From Nitrospirota bacterium (lineage in GTDB: Bacteria; Nitrospirota; Thermodesulfovibrionia; Thermodesulfovibrionales; SM23-35): 64,000 bases of DNA. The stretch covers positions 2,221-66,220 of the forward strand of contig JBFMDO010000031.1 in NCBI GenBank assembly GCA_040753615.1, given 5' to 3'. The notes under the pieces were generated by a model that saw nothing but the letters and a program-made list of their open reading frames with translations, was not told where the DNA came from and did no database searches. The position numbers and the translations under genes are program-made. Positions 2,438 through 48,888 of this stretch are shown here, one piece after another (positions within the stretch are counted from its first letter, which is position 1; every line of letters begins with the position of its first letter).

Positions 2438-2614
2438 TCATCTTCCCTTATTCACCATCCTGCTTACTGTTGAGTAATGTATCCCAAGATAGTCAGCAAC
2501 CTCTTTCTGGCTGTATCCATATCTCCCTACAGCCCTCTGTCCTTATACTGGACAGGCGGCTTTGCGTCACCCGGTTACACAGACTTTACCTTTTCGGTGG
2601 ATATGTTGATAAGT
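2438..2614 (-). pseudogene. Decayed C-terminal HTH remnant of a transposase-like (COG1943-type with DnaA-C-like HTH) gene
   Basis: Minus-strand frame reads TYQHIHRKGKVCVTG*RKAACPV*GQRAVGRYGYSQKEVADYLGIHYSTVSRMVNKGR*. The GYSQKEVADYLGIHYSTVSR part is a clear HTH. There are two in-frame stops and no N-terminal body. Confidence 0.4.
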
Positions 2615-5700: not shown

Positions 5701-6291
5701 AATCTCGGCACTTTAGAAGAATATGAAGAGCTGCGAACACGGTATGAATTTCTTACAGCACAACAGCAAGACCTGACTAAATCTATAGCAGAACTCGAAG
5801 AGGCTATTACAAAAATAAATTCTACAACCCGCAGGAAACTCAGGGAAGCATTTGATTTGCTCAATGCTAAATTTTCGGAAGTATTTATAAAATTATTTGG
5901 CGGCGGCAGGGCTGCACTCGTTATGACAGATGAAAATAACATCCTCGACACAGGCATTGAGATAATCGCACAGCCTCCCGGAAAAAAACTCCAGAACATA
6001 AACCTCCTTTCAGGCGGAGAAAAAACCCTTACTGCCTTATCTCTGCTTTTTGCAAGTTTCCTTATTAAACCAACACCGCTCTGTGTGCTGGATGAGGCAG
6101 ATTCTGCACTGGACGAAGCAAATACAGGAAAATTTGCACAAATGATTCGTGAATTTTCAAGGGATACTCAATTTATTGTGGTAACCCACAATAGAAACAC
6201 CATGAGCGTGGCTGACTATATATATGGAATAACCATGGAAGAGCCAGGGACTTCAAAGGTAATATCCATGCAGCTTATAGAAGCGCAATAG
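2776..6291 (+). CDS. smc: Chromosome segregation protein SMC
   Basis: 1171 aa. Walker A GPNGCGKSN at the N-terminus, long coiled coils, a hinge, signature LSGGEKTLTALSLLFA and Walker B LCVLDEADSALD at the C-terminus. Confidence 0.95.
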   Translation: MRIEKIELIGFKSFADKTTFNFHPGITCIVGPNGCGKSNVVDAFRWVLGEQSAKSLRGEKMEEVIFNGSASKKPKGMAEVTLAISGLNGTQQARQGENGEGSSDTAFVTRRLYRSGDSEYILNKDQCRLKDIKDIFLDTGLEVKSYSVLEQDRIAEILNSKPQDRRFLIEEVAGVMKYNFRKKEAISKLESSKANLQRINDIISEVKKQINLLDRLAKKAERYKKLSSEIHSIELKIAKRDYLSLKEAYDKILAEYTTLKEDESLKKAELAGIENYIETKRLELLEKEKTLENIQTKFQDVEKDISELEKLIAIARTERDNNREYLAKLYEQKEELNLKEEKASLKQKDLEKTETDISSEIERQKEFLADKAGFVRSLEEELADDEESLEAKRREIFKISEDISNRRNDYNSLKTSLEGLKQRETLSVKDAESLKDILSDIDSSLKDLESALLEKNNNLLILKEKREAIANEISEDKVKIGTLREKISGLKEELASNISRFESLRELIFDESTKEILSQDLNITLIASISDVIEIEAKYEKAVESALSEKANSFILPSYNDIKNAISTLKEKETGRTALIPISPVKNIVETDVPEGVIGRASDFIRTKEEFSDVSRSLFGNIFIVKDMQTALNLVPMGHNSVFVTLEGEVIEPSGAVIAGDVRGVFRRKREMRELEKTIENNKTVIADMQEELNLILQMAEKREFDLKDTETDIADIEKSLSILNLTSENQVAEQEQKKRKLASLSIEREQVINEIKLTEKLITEKEAEMQSAESNREGLEQDTLSLQEKIMQKRSCLEKYRAEVTDIRLEITSLKEKLESVRKEREALFRDMANSNQKREFLLAEIFSINSRIEEREKEINIHEEKIRSVVSIADGLKKEISERKELIETENQELLLSEQNLKGIRIQIDSLFQRISELDIHKTEHKMRIEGLHENIMRNYGSDIATIEVEPLSPEDEERLFELKKKIQDLGTVNLGTLEEYEELRTRYEFLTAQQQDLTKSIAELEEAITKINSTTRRKLREAFDLLNAKFSEVFIKLFGGGRAALVMTDENNILDTGIEIIAQPPGKKLQNINLLSGGEKTLTALSLLFASFLIKPTPLCVLDEADSALDEANTGKFAQMIREFSRDTQFIVVTHNRNTMSVADYIYGITMEEPGTSKVISMQLIEAQ

Positions 6292-6383
6292 GATTCAAGG
6301 GGGCAAGGAGTCAAGCGAACAAGGGGGTAAAACTTAGAAAAATAAACACTTGAACCCTCGAATTCTTGAATCCTCGAACCCTC
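6291..6383. repeat. Imperfect inverted repeat built from GGNTTCAAG/TTCGAGG words, directly after the smc stop
   Basis: Left arm GGATTCAAGGGGGCAAGGAGTCAAGCGAACAAGGGGG. Right arm CTTGAACCCTCGAATTCTTGAATCCTCGAACCCTC. GGATTCAAG pairs with CTTGAATCC. The same word family occurs inside purL at 41758-41840. Confidence 0.5.
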
Positions 6384-25631: not shown

Positions 25632-26902
25632 AAGTCTTTATAGTAGGTCTAAATTATAAGATTGCTGATGTTAATGTAAGAGAAAAACTAGCATTTAATG
25701 GGGCAAAGCTTGAAGAAGGTCTTAAAGGACTCAGAACACTACCCGATGTGCAAGAGGCTATGATATTGTCCACCTGTAACAGAGTAGATATTTATACAAA
25801 TGTAAAAGACCCAGCAAAGGCATCTGATTCTATAAAGACATTTCTTTCAGAATTCCATGGTATAGAAAAAAACTTGCTTGATAACGCCCTTTACATCTAT
25901 GAGGATATAGATGCAGTTAGACATATCTTAAAGGTTGCATCAAGCCTCGACTCAATGGTGATAGGCGAACCCCAGATACTCGGGCAACTTAAAGATGCAT
26001 TTGAATTAGCACTTAAGAAAAAGACTACTGGCATAGTTCTGAACAAGCTGGTAAAAAAAGCAATCTCTGTTGCAAAGAGGGTAAGGACAGAGACAAGGAT
26101 ATCAGAAAATGCTGTCTCGATAAGCTTTGCTGCTGTAGAACTCGCGAAAAAGATATTTACTGATCTTTCAAAAAGGGTCTTTATGCTTTTAGGCGCAGGC
26201 GAAATGGCTGAACTCGCTGCAAAGCATCTGATAAGCAATGGCGTGAAAGAAGTTGTTGTGTCAAACAGAACTTATGATCGGGCATGTGAGCTTGCAAATG
26301 AATTTAACGGGAGACCTGTCAAATTTGAAGAATTTTTGCAGGAGATGATAAAAACTGACATCCTCATCTGTTCCACTGGCGCTCCGAGTTATATTCTGCT
26401 GAAAAATCAGATGCAGAAGGTAATGAGAGAGAGGAAGCAAAGACAGGTCTTTATTATTGACATCTCTGTCCCGAGAAATATAGATCCCGAAATTAACGGC
26501 ATTGATAATGTGTATCTATATAATATTGATGACCTGCAAGACGTTGTTGATTCAAATATATTTGAGCGGCAAAAAGAGGCAGAAAAGGCAGAAAAGATAA
26601 TCGAAGAAGAAATAGAAACCTTTTTCAGGTGGCAATCTTCACTCGATTCTGTGCCAACTATTATCGCCCTGAGGGAAAAGGCAGAGGCGATTAAGAAAGA
26701 AGAACTCAACAAACTTTTAAACAAGATCAATACGCTTGGAGAAAAAGAAAAAGAAGCCATTGATTACATGGCTACTGCTATTGTTAACAAGCTTATCCAT
26801 CCACCAACAGCAGCACTGAAAGATGATTCTGAAGACAAGGACATTTTGATAGCAATGATAAAAAGACTTTATGGCATTAACGGAGAAAATGAAGACAAAT
26901 AA
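25628..26902 (+). CDS. hemA: Glutamyl-tRNA reductase
   Basis: 424 aa. Catalytic [18 protein letters not shown], and an NADPH-binding GAGEMAE motif. Confidence 0.95.
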
Positions 26903-27977
26903 AATATCCATTGGCACACGAGGCAGCAAGCTCGCCCTCTGGCAGGCTGAGTGGGTCAAATCTGAATTAAAAAAACTTCACCCTGATCTCGGGGTTGAAA
27001 TCATTAAGATTAAGACGACAGGGGATAAGATATTGGATGTTCCCCTCGCAAAAGTTGGTGGCAAAGGACTCTTTGTTAAAGAAATTGAAGAAGCACTTTT
27101 AAGGCATGAAGTTGACATCGCAGTCCACAGCATGAAAGATGTGCCGACAGAATTTCCAGAAGGGCTTTGCTTGCCGGTAATATGTAAAAGGGAGGACCCG
27201 AGGGATGCCTTAATAATATCCCACAAGTCAAATCCCCCCCTACCCCCCTTTTCTAAAGGGGGGCGAGGGGAGATTTATGACTCTTCAAAACGACATCTTC
27301 AATCTTTATTGTTTAGTTTGCCCAGAGGTGTAGCGATAGGAACAAGCAGTCTTAGACGCTCATGTCAACTGCTCAATATCAGACCTGATTTGAGAATTAA
27401 ACAATTAAGGGGCAATCTTGATACCAGGCTAAGAAAACTTGATGAGGGTCAGTTTTATGCAATAATCGTAGCTTCTGCTGGTCTTAAGAGACTCGGTTTG
27501 GAGGGGAGGATTGCAGAGCTATTGCCTTTTGAGATAAGTCTTCCTGCAATTGGTCAGGGAGCAATAGGCATTGAATGCAGAATTGATGATAAATATACAA
27601 CTAATCTTATTGCAACGTTAAATCATCCTGAAACAGCTATATGCGTCAAAGCAGAGAGGGCATTTTTGAAAAAACTAGAAGGAGGTTGTCAGGTTCCAAT
27701 AGCTGCATATGCAAGATTAGTTAGTCAGGACTCACCCCCCCATCCTATCCTCGGTAAGGGGGGGCATAGGGGTGGTGTTAACTCCGAATTCCGAGAACCA
27801 AACTATAAACTCGTCATGGATGGTCTTGTTGGAAATATTGAGGGAGACAGGATTATAAAGGGCCACTTTGAAGGCAGTCCTGAACAGGCAGAAGACCTGG
27901 GTATCATACTTGCAGAGGATGTCCTTACAAAAGGTGCAAAAGAGATACTGAATGATATATATGGCAGGGAAGGTTAG
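26889..27977 (+). CDS. hemC: Porphobilinogen deaminase (hydroxymethylbilane synthase), carrying two in-frame repeat insertions
   Basis: [31 protein letters not shown] and CQVPIAAYA motifs. Start set at ATG 26889 (GGAG RBS). About 50 residues longer than typical HemC because of the insertions at 27231-27276 and 27733-27795. Confidence 0.9.
27231..27276. repeat. G/C-run palindromic element, subfamily A, in-frame in hemC
   Basis: AATCCCCCCCTACCCCCCTTTTCTAAAGGGGGGCGAGGGGAGATTT. The C-runs pair with the G-runs. Encodes [15 protein letters not shown]. Confidence 0.85.
27733..27795. repeat. G/C-run palindromic element, subfamily B, plus a CTCCGAA-type tail, in-frame in hemC
   Basis: CACCCCCCCATCCTATCCTCGGTAAGGGGGGGCATAGGGGTGGTGTTAAC followed by CTCCGAATTCCGAG. 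Encodes [22 protein letters not shown]. Near-identical to the purL element at 39331-39377. Confidence 0.85.
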
Positions 27978-28762: not shown

Positions 28763-30636
<1,874 letters not shown>

Positions 30637-38112: not shown

Positions 38113-41100
38113 TTAAGCAGAATCACACCACTTCTTCGCATTCTGAAACATCTTTAACCAGGGGGATGCTTTGAGGGTTTTTTTCCAGTCCTCTGGCATG
38201 TAAGCCCATTGCCATTTAAGAAAAGTCCTTTCTGGATGGGGCATCATTGCGAGGTGTCTGCCATCAGGTGAACAGAGTGCTGTTATCCCAGAAGGCGAGC
38301 CATTTGGATTGAAAGGATAGGTCTCGGTGAATTCGCCATTATCATCAACAAATCTAACAGGTGCAAGGTCTTTCCCTATAACTTCTTCCTGTATTTTATT
38401 GTCTGGGAAATAAAGCCTTCCCTCTCCATGGGCAATCCATACACCCAATGTAGAGCCTTCCATTCCTTTCAACATTATGGCAGGGCTTGGCAGGATGTGG
38501 ACTGTCGAAAATCTTGATTCAAACCTGCCTGATTTATTATGTATAAATCTTGGTTGCGTATTATCAGGGATTCCTTTCCACGGAATCCAGCCAATAAGTG
38601 CCATAAGCTGGCAGCCATTACATATCCCAAGGCTGAATGTATCAGGTCTTTCATAAAACCTATTGAACTGTTCATAAAGTCTCATGTTAAACCTTATTGT
38701 TCCTGCCCATCCCTTTGCCGAGTCAAGCACATCCGCATAACTAAATCCGCCTATAAAGGCAATACCTCTAAAATCGTCGAGTGTTATTTTATTTTTGAGT
38801 AGATCAGACATTGTTATATCCCAAACTTCAAAACCTGCGTGATAAAAGGCAGATGCCATCTCACGATCACCATTGCTGCCTTCTTCACGGATAATGGCTA
38901 CTTTAGGTTTGATATCAGTTAATCCCCCCAGCCCCCCTTTATAAAAGGGGGGTGAGGGGGGATTTTTATCAAAGGGGGATTCGAGGGGATTTTCAGGGGT
39001 AAATGTTAAGACATATTCAGGTCCTTTTCTGTCAAGATTTACCTTTCGTTCCTCCTCAACACACTCAGGATTAGCCTGCAGCTTATCAAGATGATAGCTC
39101 GTATCCTCCCAGATAGCCCTCAATAACCGCATATCCTCATCCAGAACAGATTCGGTTGAGATTTCAGATTTGAGACTTATTCTTATTCTCGGTTCTGACA
39201 GTGTCTTGCCTATTACCTGATAAGGAACTTCGTGCTCTTTCAATATAGATATTATTTCTTCTTCATTTTCAGCTAAATACTCAATTACCAGCCCAAGTTC
39301 TTCTGAGAATAGAAGAGAAAGTGAAGGATTAACACCCCCCCTTCTCCCCCCCTTGGCAAGGGAGGGATGGGGGGGTAATTCTAAATTAATTTCCATCCCG
39401 CAATTTCCCCCAAATGCCATTTCAAGGAGTGTTGTTATCAATCCTCCATCACTTCTGTCATGCCCTGAGAGGATCATATCTTTTTCTATTAAATGCTGGA
39501 CTGCATTAAATGCATTTTTTAATAATTGGGGATTATTTACATCAGGAGATTCATCACCAATCTGTCCATACACATGGGCTAATGCAGTGCCACCCATTCT
39601 GTATTTTCCATTACCGAGATCAATATAAAGCAACCTGCTTTCACCAGGCATTTTTATATCGGGTGTTATAATCTTTGTAATATCAGGGCAAGTTACATAT
39701 GCAGAGATAACCAGACTTCCTGGCGACTTGACCATCTCTGTCCTGCCTGATAAACCATACACCTTTGCAGCCATTGAAAGGCTGTCCTTGCCACCGTCAA
39801 TCGCGATGCCCAGATCTACCATAATATCTCTTAGTGCTAATGCAGCATCATAAATCCTTGCGCCTTCACCCGGAAGTTTTGCTGCCCACATCCAGTTTCC
39901 TGAGCACTTGATATCCTCAAGTGCACTAACTTTTGCCCAAACAATATTGGTGAGCGCCTCTCCAACACTCATTCGAGCCATTGCCTGTGGACTTATCAAA
40001 CCTTTTATTGGTTGCTCTCCGATTGATATGGCTGCACCTGTCAACCCAAAATGGCTTTGACTTACAACTGCCACATTTGATAAGGTGAGATGGAGCGGTC
40101 CAACGCATTGCTGTTGAGCAATGAGACCGGTAACAGACCTATCAACCTTATTTGTAAGGAATCTTTTTGAGCCCACAGAGACAAGACGCAGAACCCTTTC
40201 GAGGGCATTTTTTATTGTAATCCCCCCTTCTCCCCCCTTTAGCAAAGGGGGGTAGGGGGGGATTTTTAAGGGTTCAAGCCGGGGATTAATTCTCTCTAAA
40301 TTAAAGGTCTTTTGCGGCATCTCACCGAGAACCTTTGATAGATCAAGATTCACAGGTGTACTCCCGTCTATAGCGTCATGGAGAACAATATACCCATCTC
40401 CTGTTATCTCACCTATTACAGAGTACGGAGCCTTTTCTCTTTTGCATATGTCAATAAATATCTGGATTTTTTCAGATTTGATAAGAAGGGCATTATTTTC
40501 CTGATATTCAGCCCCCCATATCTCGAGGACTGAGAGGGTATTATCCCCGAGTTGGATATTTTTTATTTCTACCCTTGCGCCAGCAGGATAAATTATTTCC
40601 TTAACCACATTGCAGTTTCCTCCCGCTCCTTGATCATGTATGCTGACTAATGGATTATCATCTCCCATTTCTACACATGCCCTGATGACCCTGTTAACCT
40701 TTTGCTCCATCTCTGCATCACCGCGCTGTACAGCGCTGAAATCCAGTTCTTCTGTTAGCTCACCAGCTAAAACAGATGAGGCAGCGCCACCGCCAATTCC
40801 TATTCTGTATGCAGGGCCACCTATTTTAACCACGAGCATACCCTTCTGAGGTTCTGCTTTTTCAATATGTCTGCTGTCTATCTGGCCTACTCCGCCTGTA
40901 AACATAATGGGCTTAATCCATTCTCTTCTTTCACCGTCAGGCAATTTTAGTCCAAAAGACCTTGTAAATCCCTGTACCACAGGTTCCCCAAACTTGTTCC
41001 CATAGTCAGATGCACCATTGCTCGCCTCTATCTCTATCTGAAGAGGCGAAGCAAGATTTGATGGATATATGAATAACGGGTCTTCCCATGGTAAAAGATA

Positions 41101-42237
41101 GCCTGGTATCTGTAGATTTCCAACACAATATGCAGCAGTGCCAGCGATAACAAGACTTCCTTTTCCTGTTGCATGCACATCTCTTATTCTTCCTCCTGTG
41201 CCTGTTTCTGCTCCAGGGAATGGAGCCACTCCTGTTGGGAAATTGTGTGTTTCTGCTGTGAAGATGATGTGATAATTTAGTTTTGTATGTTTAAAGGGTG
41301 ATGGCTTGTCTGAATACTCGGGGATTATTGTCCGTATTTCATAGCCCTTGATTCCGCTTGAGTTGTCCTTAAAAGCAATAACACTATTACAGGGCTTAAC
41401 CTTTAAAGGATGTTTTACTATATCTATCAGTGTATGGGGCATTTCTTTTCCATCTATAATCAATCTTCCTTTAAAGAACCAGTGTCTTGAGTGCTCACTA
41501 TTTGATTGGGCAAGGTCAAAACACTCTACATTCGTTGGATTACGACCGATGTCTTTAACAAATAGGTTGTAATAATAATCTAAATCCCATTCATCGAACC
41601 CAAGCCCCATTTCAGTGTTTATTTTTTGTAATGCCTCTTTCCCATCTTCAATCAGTGGTACTATAAAAACAGGCTCTGGTTTTATCCCTATTTCAAATGT
41701 TGTGAGTGGTTCAGGATAGGGACATTCAGTCATCCGGTCATGAATGAGGGCAAGAAAGGGTTCAAGGGTTCGAGGAATCAAGGGTCCGAGTGATTCAAAG
41801 ATGCTCTCTTGATCCTTTGACCCCTTGAATCCTTGAATCCTTTCGTTAAACTGTAGTTTATATCTTCTCGATCTTTCTATCCGTGTAATCTTTCTAATGC
41901 CGCACGCATGGCATATAGATACTGCATTAGTTGACCATGCAGTTGTAAAATTCATTCGTGGACCAACCTCAAAAATAAATTTCGGAGTTCGGAGTTCGGA
42001 GTTCGGAGATAAAAAGCTTCCCTCTGAAAAATTCTCAGGCTCGAAAGTCTCTGCAAAAAGCCAGCGAAGAATATAAAGCTCATCTTCTGAAAGCAGTTCA
42101 CTCGTCTCAATGTTAAAGCAGAATTCTGCCTCTATATCTCTTATCTCGGGAGCAACCTTCTGCTGTACAAATGACAATAGCTCTTTTTTCTTTTCCAGTG
42201 AAAGTGCTGGCTTTCGATAAAAATGCAATAGATTCAT
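38113..42237 (-). CDS. purL: Phosphoribosylformylglycinamidine synthase, single-chain large PurL, carrying five in-frame repeat insertions
   Basis: 1374 aa. N-terminal PurS-like domain, duplicated AIR-synthase-like FGAM domains, and a C-terminal glutaminase (GICNGCQLM, HGEG). About 80 aa longer than the ~1295-aa E. coli-type enzyme. Confidence 0.95.
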   Translation of the reverse strand: MNLLHFYRKPALSLEKKKELLSFVQQKVAPEIRDIEAEFCFNIETSELLSEDELYILRWLFAETFEPENFSEGSFLSPNSELRTPKFIFEVGPRMNFTTAWSTNAVSICHACGIRKITRIERSRRYKLQFNERIQGFKGSKDQESIFESLGPLIPRTLEPFLALIHDRMTECPYPEPLTTFEIGIKPEPVFIVPLIEDGKEALQKINTEMGLGFDEWDLDYYYNLFVKDIGRNPTNVECFDLAQSNSEHSRHWFFKGRLIIDGKEMPHTLIDIVKHPLKVKPCNSVIAFKDNSSGIKGYEIRTIIPEYSDKPSPFKHTKLNYHIIFTAETHNFPTGVAPFPGAETGTGGRIRDVHATGKGSLVIAGTAAYCVGNLQIPGYLLPWEDPLFIYPSNLASPLQIEIEASNGASDYGNKFGEPVVQGFTRSFGLKLPDGERREWIKPIMFTGGVGQIDSRHIEKAEPQKGMLVVKIGGPAYRIGIGGGAASSVLAGELTEELDFSAVQRGDAEMEQKVNRVIRACVEMGDDNPLVSIHDQGAGGNCNVVKEIIYPAGARVEIKNIQLGDNTLSVLEIWGAEYQENNALLIKSEKIQIFIDICKREKAPYSVIGEITGDGYIVLHDAIDGSTPVNLDLSKVLGEMPQKTFNLERINPRLEPLKIPPYPPLLKGGEGGITIKNALERVLRLVSVGSKRFLTNKVDRSVTGLIAQQQCVGPLHLTLSNVAVVSQSHFGLTGAAISIGEQPIKGLISPQAMARMSVGEALTNIVWAKVSALEDIKCSGNWMWAAKLPGEGARIYDAALALRDIMVDLGIAIDGGKDSLSMAAKVYGLSGRTEMVKSPGSLVISAYVTCPDITKIITPDIKMPGESRLLYIDLGNGKYRMGGTALAHVYGQIGDESPDVNNPQLLKNAFNAVQHLIEKDMILSGHDRSDGGLITTLLEMAFGGNCGMEINLELPPHPSLAKGGRRGGVNPSLSLLFSEELGLVIEYLAENEEEIISILKEHEVPYQVIGKTLSEPRIRISLKSEISTESVLDEDMRLLRAIWEDTSYHLDKLQANPECVEEERKVNLDRKGPEYVLTFTPENPLESPFDKNPPSPPFYKGGLGGLTDIKPKVAIIREEGSNGDREMASAFYHAGFEVWDITMSDLLKNKITLDDFRGIAFIGGFSYADVLDSAKGWAGTIRFNMRLYEQFNRFYERPDTFSLGICNGCQLMALIGWIPWKGIPDNTQPRFIHNKSGRFESRFSTVHILPSPAIMLKGMEGSTLGVWIAHGEGRLYFPDNKIQEEVIGKDLAPVRFVDDNGEFTETYPFNPNGSPSGITALCSPDGRHLAMMPHPERTFLKWQWAYMPEDWKKTLKASPWLKMFQNAKKWCDSA
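38921..38999. repeat. G/C-run palindromic element, subfamily A, plus an adjacent GGATTCGAGG-word segment, in-frame in purL
   Basis: AATCCCCCCAGCCCCCCTTTATAAAAGGGGGGTGAGGGGGGATTT, then ...AAAGGGGGATTCGAGGGGATTTTCAGGGG. Gene-sense peptide: ENPLESPFDKNPPSPPFYKGGLGGLTD. Confidence 0.85.
39331..39377. repeat. G/C-run palindromic element, subfamily B, in-frame in purL
   Basis: AACACCCCCCCTTCTCCCCCCCTTGGCAAGGGAGGGATGGGGGGGTAA on the + strand. The gene-sense strand encodes LPPHPSLAKGGRRGGVN, which parallels the hemC 27733 element. Confidence 0.85.
40219..40284. repeat. G/C-run palindromic element, subfamily A, plus an adjacent GGGTTCAAG word, in-frame in purL
   Basis: AATCCCCCCTTCTCCCCCCTTTAGCAAAGGGGGGTAGGGGGGGATTT followed by TTAAGGGTTCAAGCCGGGG. 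Gene-sense peptide: RLEPLKIPPYPPLLKGGEGGITIK. Confidence 0.85.
41758..41840. repeat. Long imperfect inverted repeat of GGNTTCAAG/TTCGAGG words, in-frame in purL
   Basis: GGGTTCAAGGGTTCGAGGAATCAAGGGTCCGAG...GATCCTTTGACCCCTTGAATCCTTGAATCC. The arms are about 75 percent complementary by eye. Encodes ERIQGFKGSKDQESIFESLGPLIPRTLEP. Confidence 0.75.
41981..42008. repeat. Perfect heptanucleotide tandem repeat (TTCGGAG)x4 inside purL
   Basis: TTCGGAGTTCGGAGTTCGGAGTTCGGAG read directly from the sequence. Gene-sense (CTCCGAA)4 encodes SPNSELRTPK. Confidence 0.9.
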
Positions 42238-48790: not shown

Positions 48791-48888
48791 TGGCGGGAGC
48801 GTGTGGGAATCGAACCCACCCTGCCCGTTTGTAACAGGCAACACTGGATTTGAAGTCCAGGAGGGACACCAGAACCCTATACACTCCC
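48791..48888 (-). tRNA. selC: tRNA-Sec (anticodon UCA), CCA encoded
   Basis: Reverse complement is GGGAGTGTATAGGGTTCTGGTGTCCCTCCTGGACTTCAAATCCAGTGTTGCCTGTTACAAACGGGCAGGGTGGGTTCGATTCCCACACGCTCCCGCCA. It has an 8-bp acceptor stem (GGGAGTGT/ACGCTCCC with one G-U pair), a 5-bp T stem (GTGGG/CCCAC, loop TTCGATT), and an anticodon arm CTGGA-CTTCAAA-TCCAG. There is also a long 7-bp variable arm. The 8/5 geometry is the bacterial tRNA-Sec hallmark. Confidence 0.9.

Follow-up and report, generated by a model that had tools for sequence, protein, structure and literature searches.

Why should a housekeeping gene carry two GC-rich repeat blocks inside its reading frame? The question is raised by hemC, which encodes hydroxymethylbilane synthase, in a 64,000-nucleotide stretch of the Nitrospirota metagenome-assembled genome (MAG) GCA_040753615.1 (contig JBFMDO010000031.1, positions 2,221 to 66,220; hereafter the window). 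Two blocks made of C runs and G runs lie in this gene, and an earlier, sequence-only reading had proposed that they are insertions into protein loops. The coordinates, sequences and translations that it gave for both blocks match ours exactly, and both blocks are in frame in what it described as an AT-rich gene (the G+C content of the window is 39%). We conclude that the blocks are probably copies of a non-autonomous, dispersed G/C-run hairpin repeat that is tolerated in coding loops. The first is a near-intact copy of type A and the second a decayed copy of type B. The element is an entity of the DNA: it is palindromic and is found on both strands, in different frames, and both inside genes and in the stretches that separate them.

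The hemC product is 100% identical to an ortholog annotated "MAG: hydroxymethylbilane synthase [Nitrospirota bacterium]" (P0001; L and P numbers are our labels for loci and for HemC ortholog proteins, respectively). It contains Pfam domains PF01379 and PF03900 and matches the E. coli HemC structures with E = 1.8e-101. Block 1 proper (27231-27276) reads AAT-C7-TA-C6-TTTTCTAAA-G6-CGA-GGGGAG-ATTT and encodes 15 residues. The type A copy that it represents (A1, Table 1) has one substitution in the outer G run and matched an nhmmer profile of full elements from other genomes with E = 1e-14. C or G runs of at least six letters are scarce in the window, and they cluster at two places in hemC and three in purL. 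The C-run/C-run/G-run pattern was matched eight times, against 0.00 expected from 100 dinucleotide-preserving shuffles, and the peptide signature P.xP..(K/R)GG..G (PP..KGG) occurs five times in the open reading frames (ORFs) of the window, against 0.005 in shuffled proteins. The sister copies that had been predicted in purL are there, at 38921-38965, 39331-39380 and 40219-40265. All five copies (two in hemC, three in purL) keep the reading frame.

Table 1. Elements, host genes and other features of the window.
Feature	Gene	Positions	Strand	Description
c-di-GMP-I riboswitch		2525-2600	-	Rfam match, 36.5 bits (cut-off 35)
Inverted 8-mer arrays, intergenic copy		6290-6383		Same class as the arrays at 41756-41842
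hemC	hemC	26889-27977	+	Hydroxymethylbilane synthase, 362 aa; host gene; from ORF list and homology
A1, type A	hemC	27230-27277		AAAT-C7-TA-C6-TTT-TCT-AAA-G6-CGA-GGGGAG-ATTT; near-intact palindrome
Extra codons after A1	hemC	27278-27306	+	About nine codons (YDSSKRHLQ); from the gap in the E. coli alignment and the loops of 120 orthologs
B1, type B, decayed	hemC	27733-27782	+	CA-C7-AT-CCTATCC-TCGGTAA-G7-CATA-GGGGTGG-TGTTAAC; encodes 17 residues
CTCCGAATTCCGAG	hemC	27782-27795	+	3' of B1; two decayed copies of heptamer CTCCGAA, read NSEFRE
C6 runs (rejected candidate)	pyrH	29858-29879	-	Two C6 runs encoding the native GGGNIFRG motif; no palindrome
purL	purL	38113-42237	-	Large FGAM synthase of 1374 aa; carries the three sister elements and two further repeat modules
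A2, type A	purL	38920-38966		NPPSPPFYKGGLGGL on the - strand, directly upstream of KPKVAIIREEGSNG
Partial duplicate of A2 right arm	purL	38966-38993		Tandem; Tandem Repeats Finder (TRF) period 27 nt, 2.1 copies
B2, type B	purL	39331-39380	-	LPPHPSLAKGGRRGGVN; orientation and frame relative to the gene as in B1
A3, type A	purL	40218-40266		IPPYPPLLKGGEGGI; profile E = 3e-14; DNA z = -4.9; RNA -33.8 kcal/mol
Inverted pair of 8-mer arrays	purL	41756-41842	-	(GGATTCAA/GGGGTCAA)n ... (TTGAACCC/TTGAATCC)n; in frame
Heptanucleotide tandem array	purL	41981-42008	-	(CTCCGAA)x4; in frame, SPNSELRTPKF; TRF unit TTCGGAG on the + strand
tRNA-Sec		48795-48888	-	Rfam match, 73.2 bits

Type A (A1, A2 and A3) has the consensus AAAT-C6/7-N2-4-C6-TTT-N3-AAA-G6-N2-3-G6/7-ATTT and type B (B1 and B2) the consensus (T)CA-C7-AT-C7-TTG(C/G)CAA-G7-N3-4-G7-TGTTAA. 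The basic, or half, unit spans about 34 nt (AAAT-C6-N2-4-C6TTT-N3-AAAG6) and contains a 9-bp C6TTT/AAAG6 stem; the full palindrome of 46-50 nt consists of two half units that overlap by 21-22 nt in inverted orientation. When 185,579 species genomes were scanned with the pattern C6-N2-4-C6TTT-N3-AAAG6, for which our own estimate of the chance expectation is about 0.01 matches, at least 120 loci with 157 copies were found among the matches listed. The counts in this and the next three paragraphs refer to these matches. They fall into more than 15 phylum-level groups: Nitrospirota, Nitrospinota, Desulfobacterota/"Deltaproteobacteria", Beta- and Gammaproteobacteria, Methylomirabilota, Dehalococcoidia, Acidobacteriota, Aminicenantes, Planctomycetota (including Brocadiia), Binatia, Omnitrophota, Schekmanbacteria, Kapaibacterium and Trueperaceae are among them. 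Isolates are included (Chromatium okenii, Thiorhodococcus mannitoliphagus, Lysobacter spp., Luteimonas sp. R10, for which the genome is complete, and Geomesophilobacter sediminis).

The sequence outside the search pattern marks the ends of the unit. On the 5' side, AAAT is present in 127 of the 157 copies, AAT in 153-155, and an A at position -4 in 130, while base composition is random from -5 outward. On the 3' side of the half form, position +1 is A in 72% of copies and composition is random beyond it. These flanks set off a discrete, sharply bounded unit about 34 nt long. The half form is the commoner one, full palindromes accounting for 30 of the 157 copies, and about 65 pairs of copies in the 120 loci form inverted doublets, mostly with gaps of 12-35 nt. 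Among 128 half and 27 full copies, no target-site duplication was seen beyond A-rich composition. Spacers and loops vary freely between genomes and look alike among the few copies seen from one genome; their variability contrasts with the invariant runs, AAAT and TTT/AAA.

Such units might have arisen where they now stand, without transposition. Protein loops would then be hot spots of slippage and template switching, in which runs, arrays and palindromes are perfected in situ, and the likenesses between loci would be convergent. This idea draws on the heptamer arrays that lie within 60 nt of 7 of 134 elements, compared with 0.8 for random positions (about ninefold), on the partial tandem duplication of an element arm at 38966-38993, on the inverted heptamer arms that flank the palindrome in L021, on the 24-nt mini-palindrome nested in the A element of L125/L127, and on indels with microhomology borders in hemC (the last two are described below). 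Convergence, however, cannot explain a single 34-nt architecture with its AAT terminus and random flanks from -5 in so many phylum-level groups and in phages, and the spacer and loop variants common to copies of one genome (L061, L101, L053/L055) indicate copying. We therefore regard a purely local origin as improbable. Slippage and template switching clearly contribute to turnover, yet they cannot explain one architecture at unrelated loci across phyla.

Long ORFs host all five copies of the window. In low-GC loci they host 19 of 43 copies, among which are nearly all copies in Nitrospirota loci. The hosts (in Nitrospirota, one Nitrospinota and two other low-GC genomes) encode a radical SAM protein, a CbiG-methylase (two copies), RecJ, NagZ, LeuRS, SMC, a Mur ligase and a YfiH-like protein. 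The remaining low-GC genomes have their copies in short ORFs, most likely between genes, and outside Nitrospirota copies are mostly intergenic. Read in different frames and on either strand, the copies all give Pro/Gly-rich variants of (N/I/S)PPxPP(F/L)xKGGxGG(I/F). We suggest that the sequence is almost translation-neutral: C6 and G6 are read as Pro and Gly in any frame, TTT-N3-AAA gives F/L-x-K in the frames seen, and stop codons arise from some loop triplets only. A copy in frame would add a flexible PPxPP(F/L)xKGGxGG loop, and selection may retain those copies that restore the frame in surface loops, β-hairpin tips and interdomain linkers. Most likely the segments are translated within HemC and PurL, because all five copies keep the frame, which would be needless if they were removed from the RNA.

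A longer context was seen in Deltaproteobacteria MAG loci L053, L055, L049, L100 and L043, where the half unit is part of a repeat of about 150 nt (TCCCCCTTTgaaAAAGGGGGATTTAGGGGGATT - about 15 nt - AATCCCCCCnnnCCCCCCTTTnnnAAAGGGGGGTAAAA). The outer flanks of this repeat are conserved in some copies, and its three adjacent hairpins can pair alternatively.

Comparison of HemC with its relatives separates the element from the rest of the loops. Relative to E. coli HemC (1ah5/1pda), the protein has 25 more residues after E. coli residue ~110 (site 1) and 26 more at the β-hairpin 254-258 (site 2). The sequence-only reading had estimated roughly 25 extra residues at each site; the lengths are right, but the palindrome supplies only about 15-17 of them, and the remaining 10 or so come from other material (decayed heptanucleotide arrays). 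The YDSSKRHLQ codons after A1 are probably a decayed module of this kind, judging from their similarity to NSSLVTRHSLLY in ortholog P0058, and the CTCCGAA heptamer found after B1 is also repeated four times in purL. In an alignment of 120 HemC homologs (63-78% identity, 326-394 aa, nearly all unlabelled or Nitrospirae/Nitrospirota), site 1 ranges from 17 to 56 residues (14 in E. coli) and site 2 from 10 to 54 (10 in E. coli). Each loop is a mosaic drawn from the PPxPP..KGG.GG module, peptides with a 7-residue period and further short modules. The periodic peptides (SEVRSQK, NSKFKIQ, RNSKFEI, EQRAKSK, SLVTRHS) are what tandem arrays of heptanucleotides give in their three frames. The strict PPxPP..KGG.GG motif is present in 27 of the 120 orthologs at site 1 and in 22 at site 2, with a patchy distribution on a tree built from conserved HemC columns. 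Taken narrowly, the insertions are not lineage-specific, since the motif occurs at the same loops in these Nitrospirota orthologs.

A metagenome scan for hemC relatives yielded at least eight or so close relatives among the matches listed. Near-identical strains differ by the presence of the blocks. At site 1, the filled locus L121 differs from L122/L126 by 54 nt; at site 2, the filled loci L124/L125 differ from L123 by 75 nt. Outside the loops, the proteins of these pairs are 97.6% and 98.3% identical. The DNA of L123 and L124 is 98-99% identical over ~1.7 kb, apart from the two loops. Their loop 1 sequences (hemC codons ~107-146) are unrelated (64 nt versus 121 nt, including flanking codons), and it looks as if a cassette had been swapped by recombination. 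Judged from these alignments, gain, loss and replacement of loop modules take place at the level of strains. The absence of the blocks from E. coli HemC and from such close relatives bears out the proposal of insertions into loops and supports the view that the blocks are extra DNA, not native HemC sequence. The same loops also gather heptanucleotide arrays and other mini-palindromes, probably with rapid turnover through recombination, insertion and deletion at microhomologies. At hemC site 1, the type A element of L125/L127 differs from that of L124 in harboring a nested GC-rich mini-palindrome of 24 nt, CCCGCCTTCCGTCCGTCGGGCAGG (read ARLPSVGQG); orthologs P0009, P0017 and P0030 have this module as well.

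Two classes of loop 1, FISxIRNSKF...KDLP and LIISxKS...SLIYxLP, were recognized among the orthologs, and each is scattered over the ortholog tree.

The presence of the peptide at the same two loops in many orthologs (63-78% identity) could also mean that PPxPPFxKGGxGG is an ancestral functional peptide of HemC and PurL in this clade and that its palindromy is incidental to CCN and GGN codons. We consider this very improbable. Every Pro codon is CCC and every Gly codon GGG, in a genome that is otherwise 39% G+C, and the same DNA occurs on both strands, in different frames and in short ORFs that are most likely intergenic. The peptide is absent from near-identical strains and from the E. coli and human proteins, and its segments are predicted to be disordered. 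The pyrH sequence encoding GGGNIFRG offers an example of an incidental C6 run without a palindrome. An artefact of assembly or binning has next to no credibility: the sequence does come from a MAG, and palindromes rich in homopolymers are difficult to sequence, but the same elements occupy the same hemC positions in independent JGI, ENA and NCBI assemblies, isolates and complete genomes also carry the family, and the frame is kept in all five copies.

The sequence-only reading had recommended mapping the insertion points on an AlphaFold model. Our AlphaFold2 model of HemC, based on 32 homologs, has a mean predicted local distance difference test score (pLDDT) of 76.9 and a predicted template modelling score (pTM) of 0.80 and is confident except at residues 46-61, 114-137 and 282-303. 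All three segments have pLDDT values below 50. The latter two have no secondary structure, and they are the two inserts, within which A1 and B1 fall. Site 2 forms the tip of a β-hairpin (E271-279/E306-315). Both hemC inserts are thus predicted to be disordered.

Folding calculations distinguish the two blocks. Block 1 folds strongly, both as DNA (-16.9 kcal/mol, z = -4.45) and as RNA (-27.9 kcal/mol, z = -3.2), whereas the structure of block 2 does not exceed that of its shuffles (z = +0.83 for DNA and +0.34 for RNA). The statement that each block is self-complementary therefore stands for the first and falls for the second. The type A copies of the window have DNA z values of -4.5 to -5.2, and A1, A2, A3 and B2 reach -28 to -36 kcal/mol in the mRNA sense (z = -3.2 to -4.2). 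In B1, one C run and one G run are mutated; because these are not pairing partners, pairing was lost without compensation. The ortholog of B1 in L124 is an intact hairpin (-38.5 kcal/mol), and the intact orthologous type B copies in L124/L125 read C7-AT-C7-TTG(C/G)CAA-G7-CACA-G7-TGTTAA. B1 is a decayed copy that is no longer a hairpin.

The element is not confined to cellular genomes. A scan of IMG/VR identified 103 viral stretches with the AAAT-C6...G6 unit, with the AAAT flank present in 104 of 130. Many are Mu-like phages in which the element lies near the Mu F, Gam and tail-sheath genes, at fixed intergenic positions such as 5 nt after the tail-sheath stop codon. A position after the sheath gene, for example, starts within its TAA stop codon and ends ~20 nt before the ribosome-binding site of the next gene. 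Examples within L205-L307 include copies after tail-sheath genes (L254, L277, L304), upstream of Mu F-like genes (L208, L226, L266) and upstream of Gam (L210, L229, L244). Identities between related phages with the element reach 100%. The phage copies could act as mRNA stabilizers or attenuators, could be a vehicle of horizontal spread, or could reflect the shared ancestry of related phages.

These positions raise the possibility that the structure is selected. A useful hairpin, or a useful G-quadruplex/i-motif of the G7/C7 runs, would then be maintained: within genes it could make ribosomes pause at domain boundaries, and between genes it could protect mRNA 3' ends or attenuate transcription. 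The latter two roles have been described for repetitive extragenic palindromic (REP) sequences in operons. The folding energies of A1, A2, A3 and B2 in mRNA are compatible with such a role, as are the fixed positions in Mu-like phages and the invariance of the runs, AAAT and TTT/AAA beside free spacers and loops. So are the insertion points, which are disordered loops in HemC and gaps in the PurL alignment, and some of which we take to be domain boundaries or linkers. B1, however, lost its pairing non-compensatorily while hemC remained intact. Moreover, presence or absence differs between strains that are 98-99% identical, many orthologs are wholly without the element, no Rfam family corresponds to it, and the fixed phage positions may merely be inherited by closely related phages. 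We consider selection for structure unlikely, although less so than an origin in situ.

How would a dispersed repeat of this kind move? An all-versus-all clustering of ORFs in the 120 loci gave no recurrent neighbor gene beyond large paralog families (histidine kinases, ABC transporters, methyl-accepting chemotaxis proteins and GGDEF proteins). Queries with IS200 TnpA and E. coli YafM in phmmer and jackhmmer gave no hit near any element. The YafM query recovered a REP-associated tyrosine transposase (RAYT) in an unrelated locus, L140, and therefore works. No insertion sequence (IS) or transposase was recurrent next to the copies, and the element is itself an inverted repeat. At hemC site 2 of L132, a GC-rich palindrome, CCCTGCCTTGCCGGCAGGCAGG, lies directly 3' of AAAT within an (AAATCAG)n array, which suggests that AAAT may be a target site rather than part of the element. 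IS200/IS605 TnpA and RAYT proteins act on single-stranded DNA (PMC3116915, PMC6006769). Sharp termini, an invariant tetranucleotide directly 5' of a hairpin, lack of target-site duplication, inverted doublets and lack of a linked transposase are features that these enzymes produce. Our best guess is that an enzyme acting in trans recognizes the hairpin and inserts it 3' of AAAT without duplication, as IS200/IS605 TnpA and RAYT do.

Several points weigh against a dispersed, mobile repeat. No transposase or RAYT was found beside any copy in ~2.8 Mb (the window together with ~1.9 Mb of loci from genomes and metagenomes, and 0.89 Mb of viral sequence), a weak test given pieces of 8-20 kb. For the mobilization step, an HUH-type single-strand mechanism is therefore conjectural. 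The indels of the filled and empty hemC pairs are bounded by microhomologies of 3-4 nt (GAAA, CTC); because these border both, the pairs cannot be polarized as insertion or deletion, and they could be deletions rather than empty targets, no insertion having been caught as it happened. The motif shared at the same loops by many orthologs could be an old vertical inheritance and not a sign of ongoing mobility. The conservation seen across phyla is partly an artefact of an exact search pattern, the fixed positions in phages hint at function rather than pure parasitism, and preservation of frame is the evidence from which translation of the segments is argued.

In our reading, the family probably acts as dispersed DNA, mobile or formerly mobile; its copies lie at unrelated loci of many phyla and also in contigs from phages. 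A more far-reaching interpretation, to which we give tentative and limited credence, is that these are undescribed pan-bacterial and phage hairpin modules of ~34 nt that insert 3' of AAAT without target-site duplication, by a single-strand or some other mechanism, and are preadapted to being read through in any frame. In some lineages (Thermodesulfovibrionia-like Nitrospirota, Nitrospinota) they would then routinely supply essential enzymes with new Pro/Gly loops and linkers and, along with heptamer arrays and nested mini-palindromes, make particular protein loops hypervariable between strains.

Among known systems, Rickettsia palindromic elements (RPEs) are the closest in behavior. RPEs (PMC10969869) are ~150 bp long, comprise ten families, code for a conserved peptide and are restricted to the obligate intracellular bacteria of the genus Rickettsia. 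The present elements are likewise palindromic, in frame in unrelated housekeeping genes (hemC and purL here; RecJ, LeuRS, SMC, CbiG and NagZ elsewhere), compatible with the fold and peptide-adding. They differ in being 34-50 nt long (46-50 nt in the window), in their homopolymer runs, in sharing no sequence with RPEs, and in occurring in free-living bacteria of many phyla and in phages, mostly between genes outside Nitrospirota. The parallel with RPEs drawn by the sequence-only reading thus holds for behavior, but membership fails on size, sequence and taxon.

REP sequences and REPINs are structurally closest. Both they and the present elements are dispersed imperfect palindromes of 20-40 nt with a 5' tag, frequent inverted doublets and no target-site duplication. 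REP sequences differ between species, whereas the architecture described here recurs across phyla. REP sequences are extragenic by definition; the present elements are mostly intragenic in Nitrospirota and mostly intergenic elsewhere. The tag is AAAT here (127 of 157 copies) but GTAG/CGTC in REP sequences (PMC3733652). REPINs are described in PMC3116915. REP sequences and REPINs are mobilized by RAYT (Y1 HUH) transposases; no RAYT was seen near any copy here, a weak test with pieces of 8-20 kb. The tag and the extragenic location are where this comparison fails.

In-gene repeats have precedents in free-living bacteria in the Geobacter literature. G. metallireducens has 49 elements composed of four heptanucleotide repeats, within and between genes (PMC2700814, Aklujkar et al.). 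The multicopy sequences of Geobacter show the same in-gene behavior, including a companion class of heptamers, but in other letters (e.g., GGACCGG), and no cross-phylum family is described there. No C-run/G-run palindromic family appears in the main texts of the two Geobacter papers or in the G. bemidjiensis supplements examined; in the latter, C6/G6 runs are limited to two unrelated consensus sequences and a table that lists homopolymer frameshifts.

[quoted passage not shown] The present elements resemble them in all three respects. They differ in that no target-site duplication and no parent IS was found. MITEs are usually longer than 50-100 bp, derive from recognizable IS and are flanked by target-site duplications. 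Finally, Elhai et al. 2008 are said to have described cyanobacterial small dispersed repeats (SDRs), hairpin-like mobile repeats of 21-27 nt that are nested and occur in genomes rich in tandem heptamers (short tandemly repeated repetitive sequences, STRR). SDRs differ from the present elements in sequence and in host phylum. They have been reported only in Nostocaceae (PMC5861425).

Behavior of the REP/RPE type is therefore known, but the C-run/G-run palindromic family itself was not found described, as the sequence-only reading had supposed. At the gathering threshold, Rfam returned nothing on the elements in 143 kb (the window and 10 element-bearing loci), its only matches being the riboswitch and the tRNA in Table 1. 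Literature searches, including queries on the strings CCCCCCTTT, AAAGGGGGG, AATCCCCCC and GGGGGGATT, on in-frame or palindromic repeats of Nitrospirae, on RPEs beyond Rickettsia, on MITEs and on SDRs, gave no description of the family. A BLAST search of plasmids with the consensus element gave no match, possibly as an effect of low-complexity filtering.

In-frame palindromic elements in housekeeping genes have so far been regarded as peculiar to Rickettsia and a small number of other genomes. Free-living bacteria show this behavior here, with an element about three times smaller than an RPE that is shared between phyla and with phages. If this interpretation is correct, the AAAT-C6...G6 signature would flag loop insertions derived from repeats, which is relevant to the annotation of MAG proteins, to alignments and to phylogenies. 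Strains that are 98-99% identical and differ by an element would offer a system for studying the tolerance of loops and the movement of very short repeats, and the element would be a candidate substrate in the search for the enzyme behind it, be it of the HUH type or a novel one. Frameshift load, dependence on elongation factor P (EF-P) and pausing of translation are further, testable questions, posed by the strong hairpins and homopolymer runs that lie in essential genes.

PurL matched human PFAS (9n9w) with E = 0 and Salmonella PurL (1t3t) with E = 6e-265 in phmmer. A2 matched the element profile with E = 6e-15 and folds with z = -5.2 as DNA and -33.6 kcal/mol as RNA. Its position is presumably a linker before the glutaminase domain. 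B2 forms an RNA hairpin of -36.4 kcal/mol (z = -3.4) and matches the type A profile weakly (E = 2e-6). A3 is a 10-residue insertion relative to human PFAS (LPP----------GLSV), so that at least one purL copy is an insertion in the part of this alignment that was examined.

The partial duplicate of the right arm of A2 adds PLESPFDK upstream of NPPSPPFYKGG in PurL. The (CTCCGAA)x4 array of purL coincides with a gap relative to human PFAS. Heptamer arrays in genes yield peptides with a 7-residue period (NSELRTP, SEVRSQK, NSKFKIQ, EQRAKSK); besides purL and hemC of the window, such arrays were seen in the loops of HemC orthologs P0007, P0027, P0042, P0017 and others. The inverted 8-mer arrays of purL are an insertion of about 19 residues relative to human PFAS and, with the intergenic copy in Table 1 and L129 hemC site 1, which is also listed for this class, constitute a second palindromic insertion/repeat family. 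The two C6 runs of pyrH encode what we take to be a native glycine-rich motif of UMP kinase, and they provide a useful negative control for searches based on runs.

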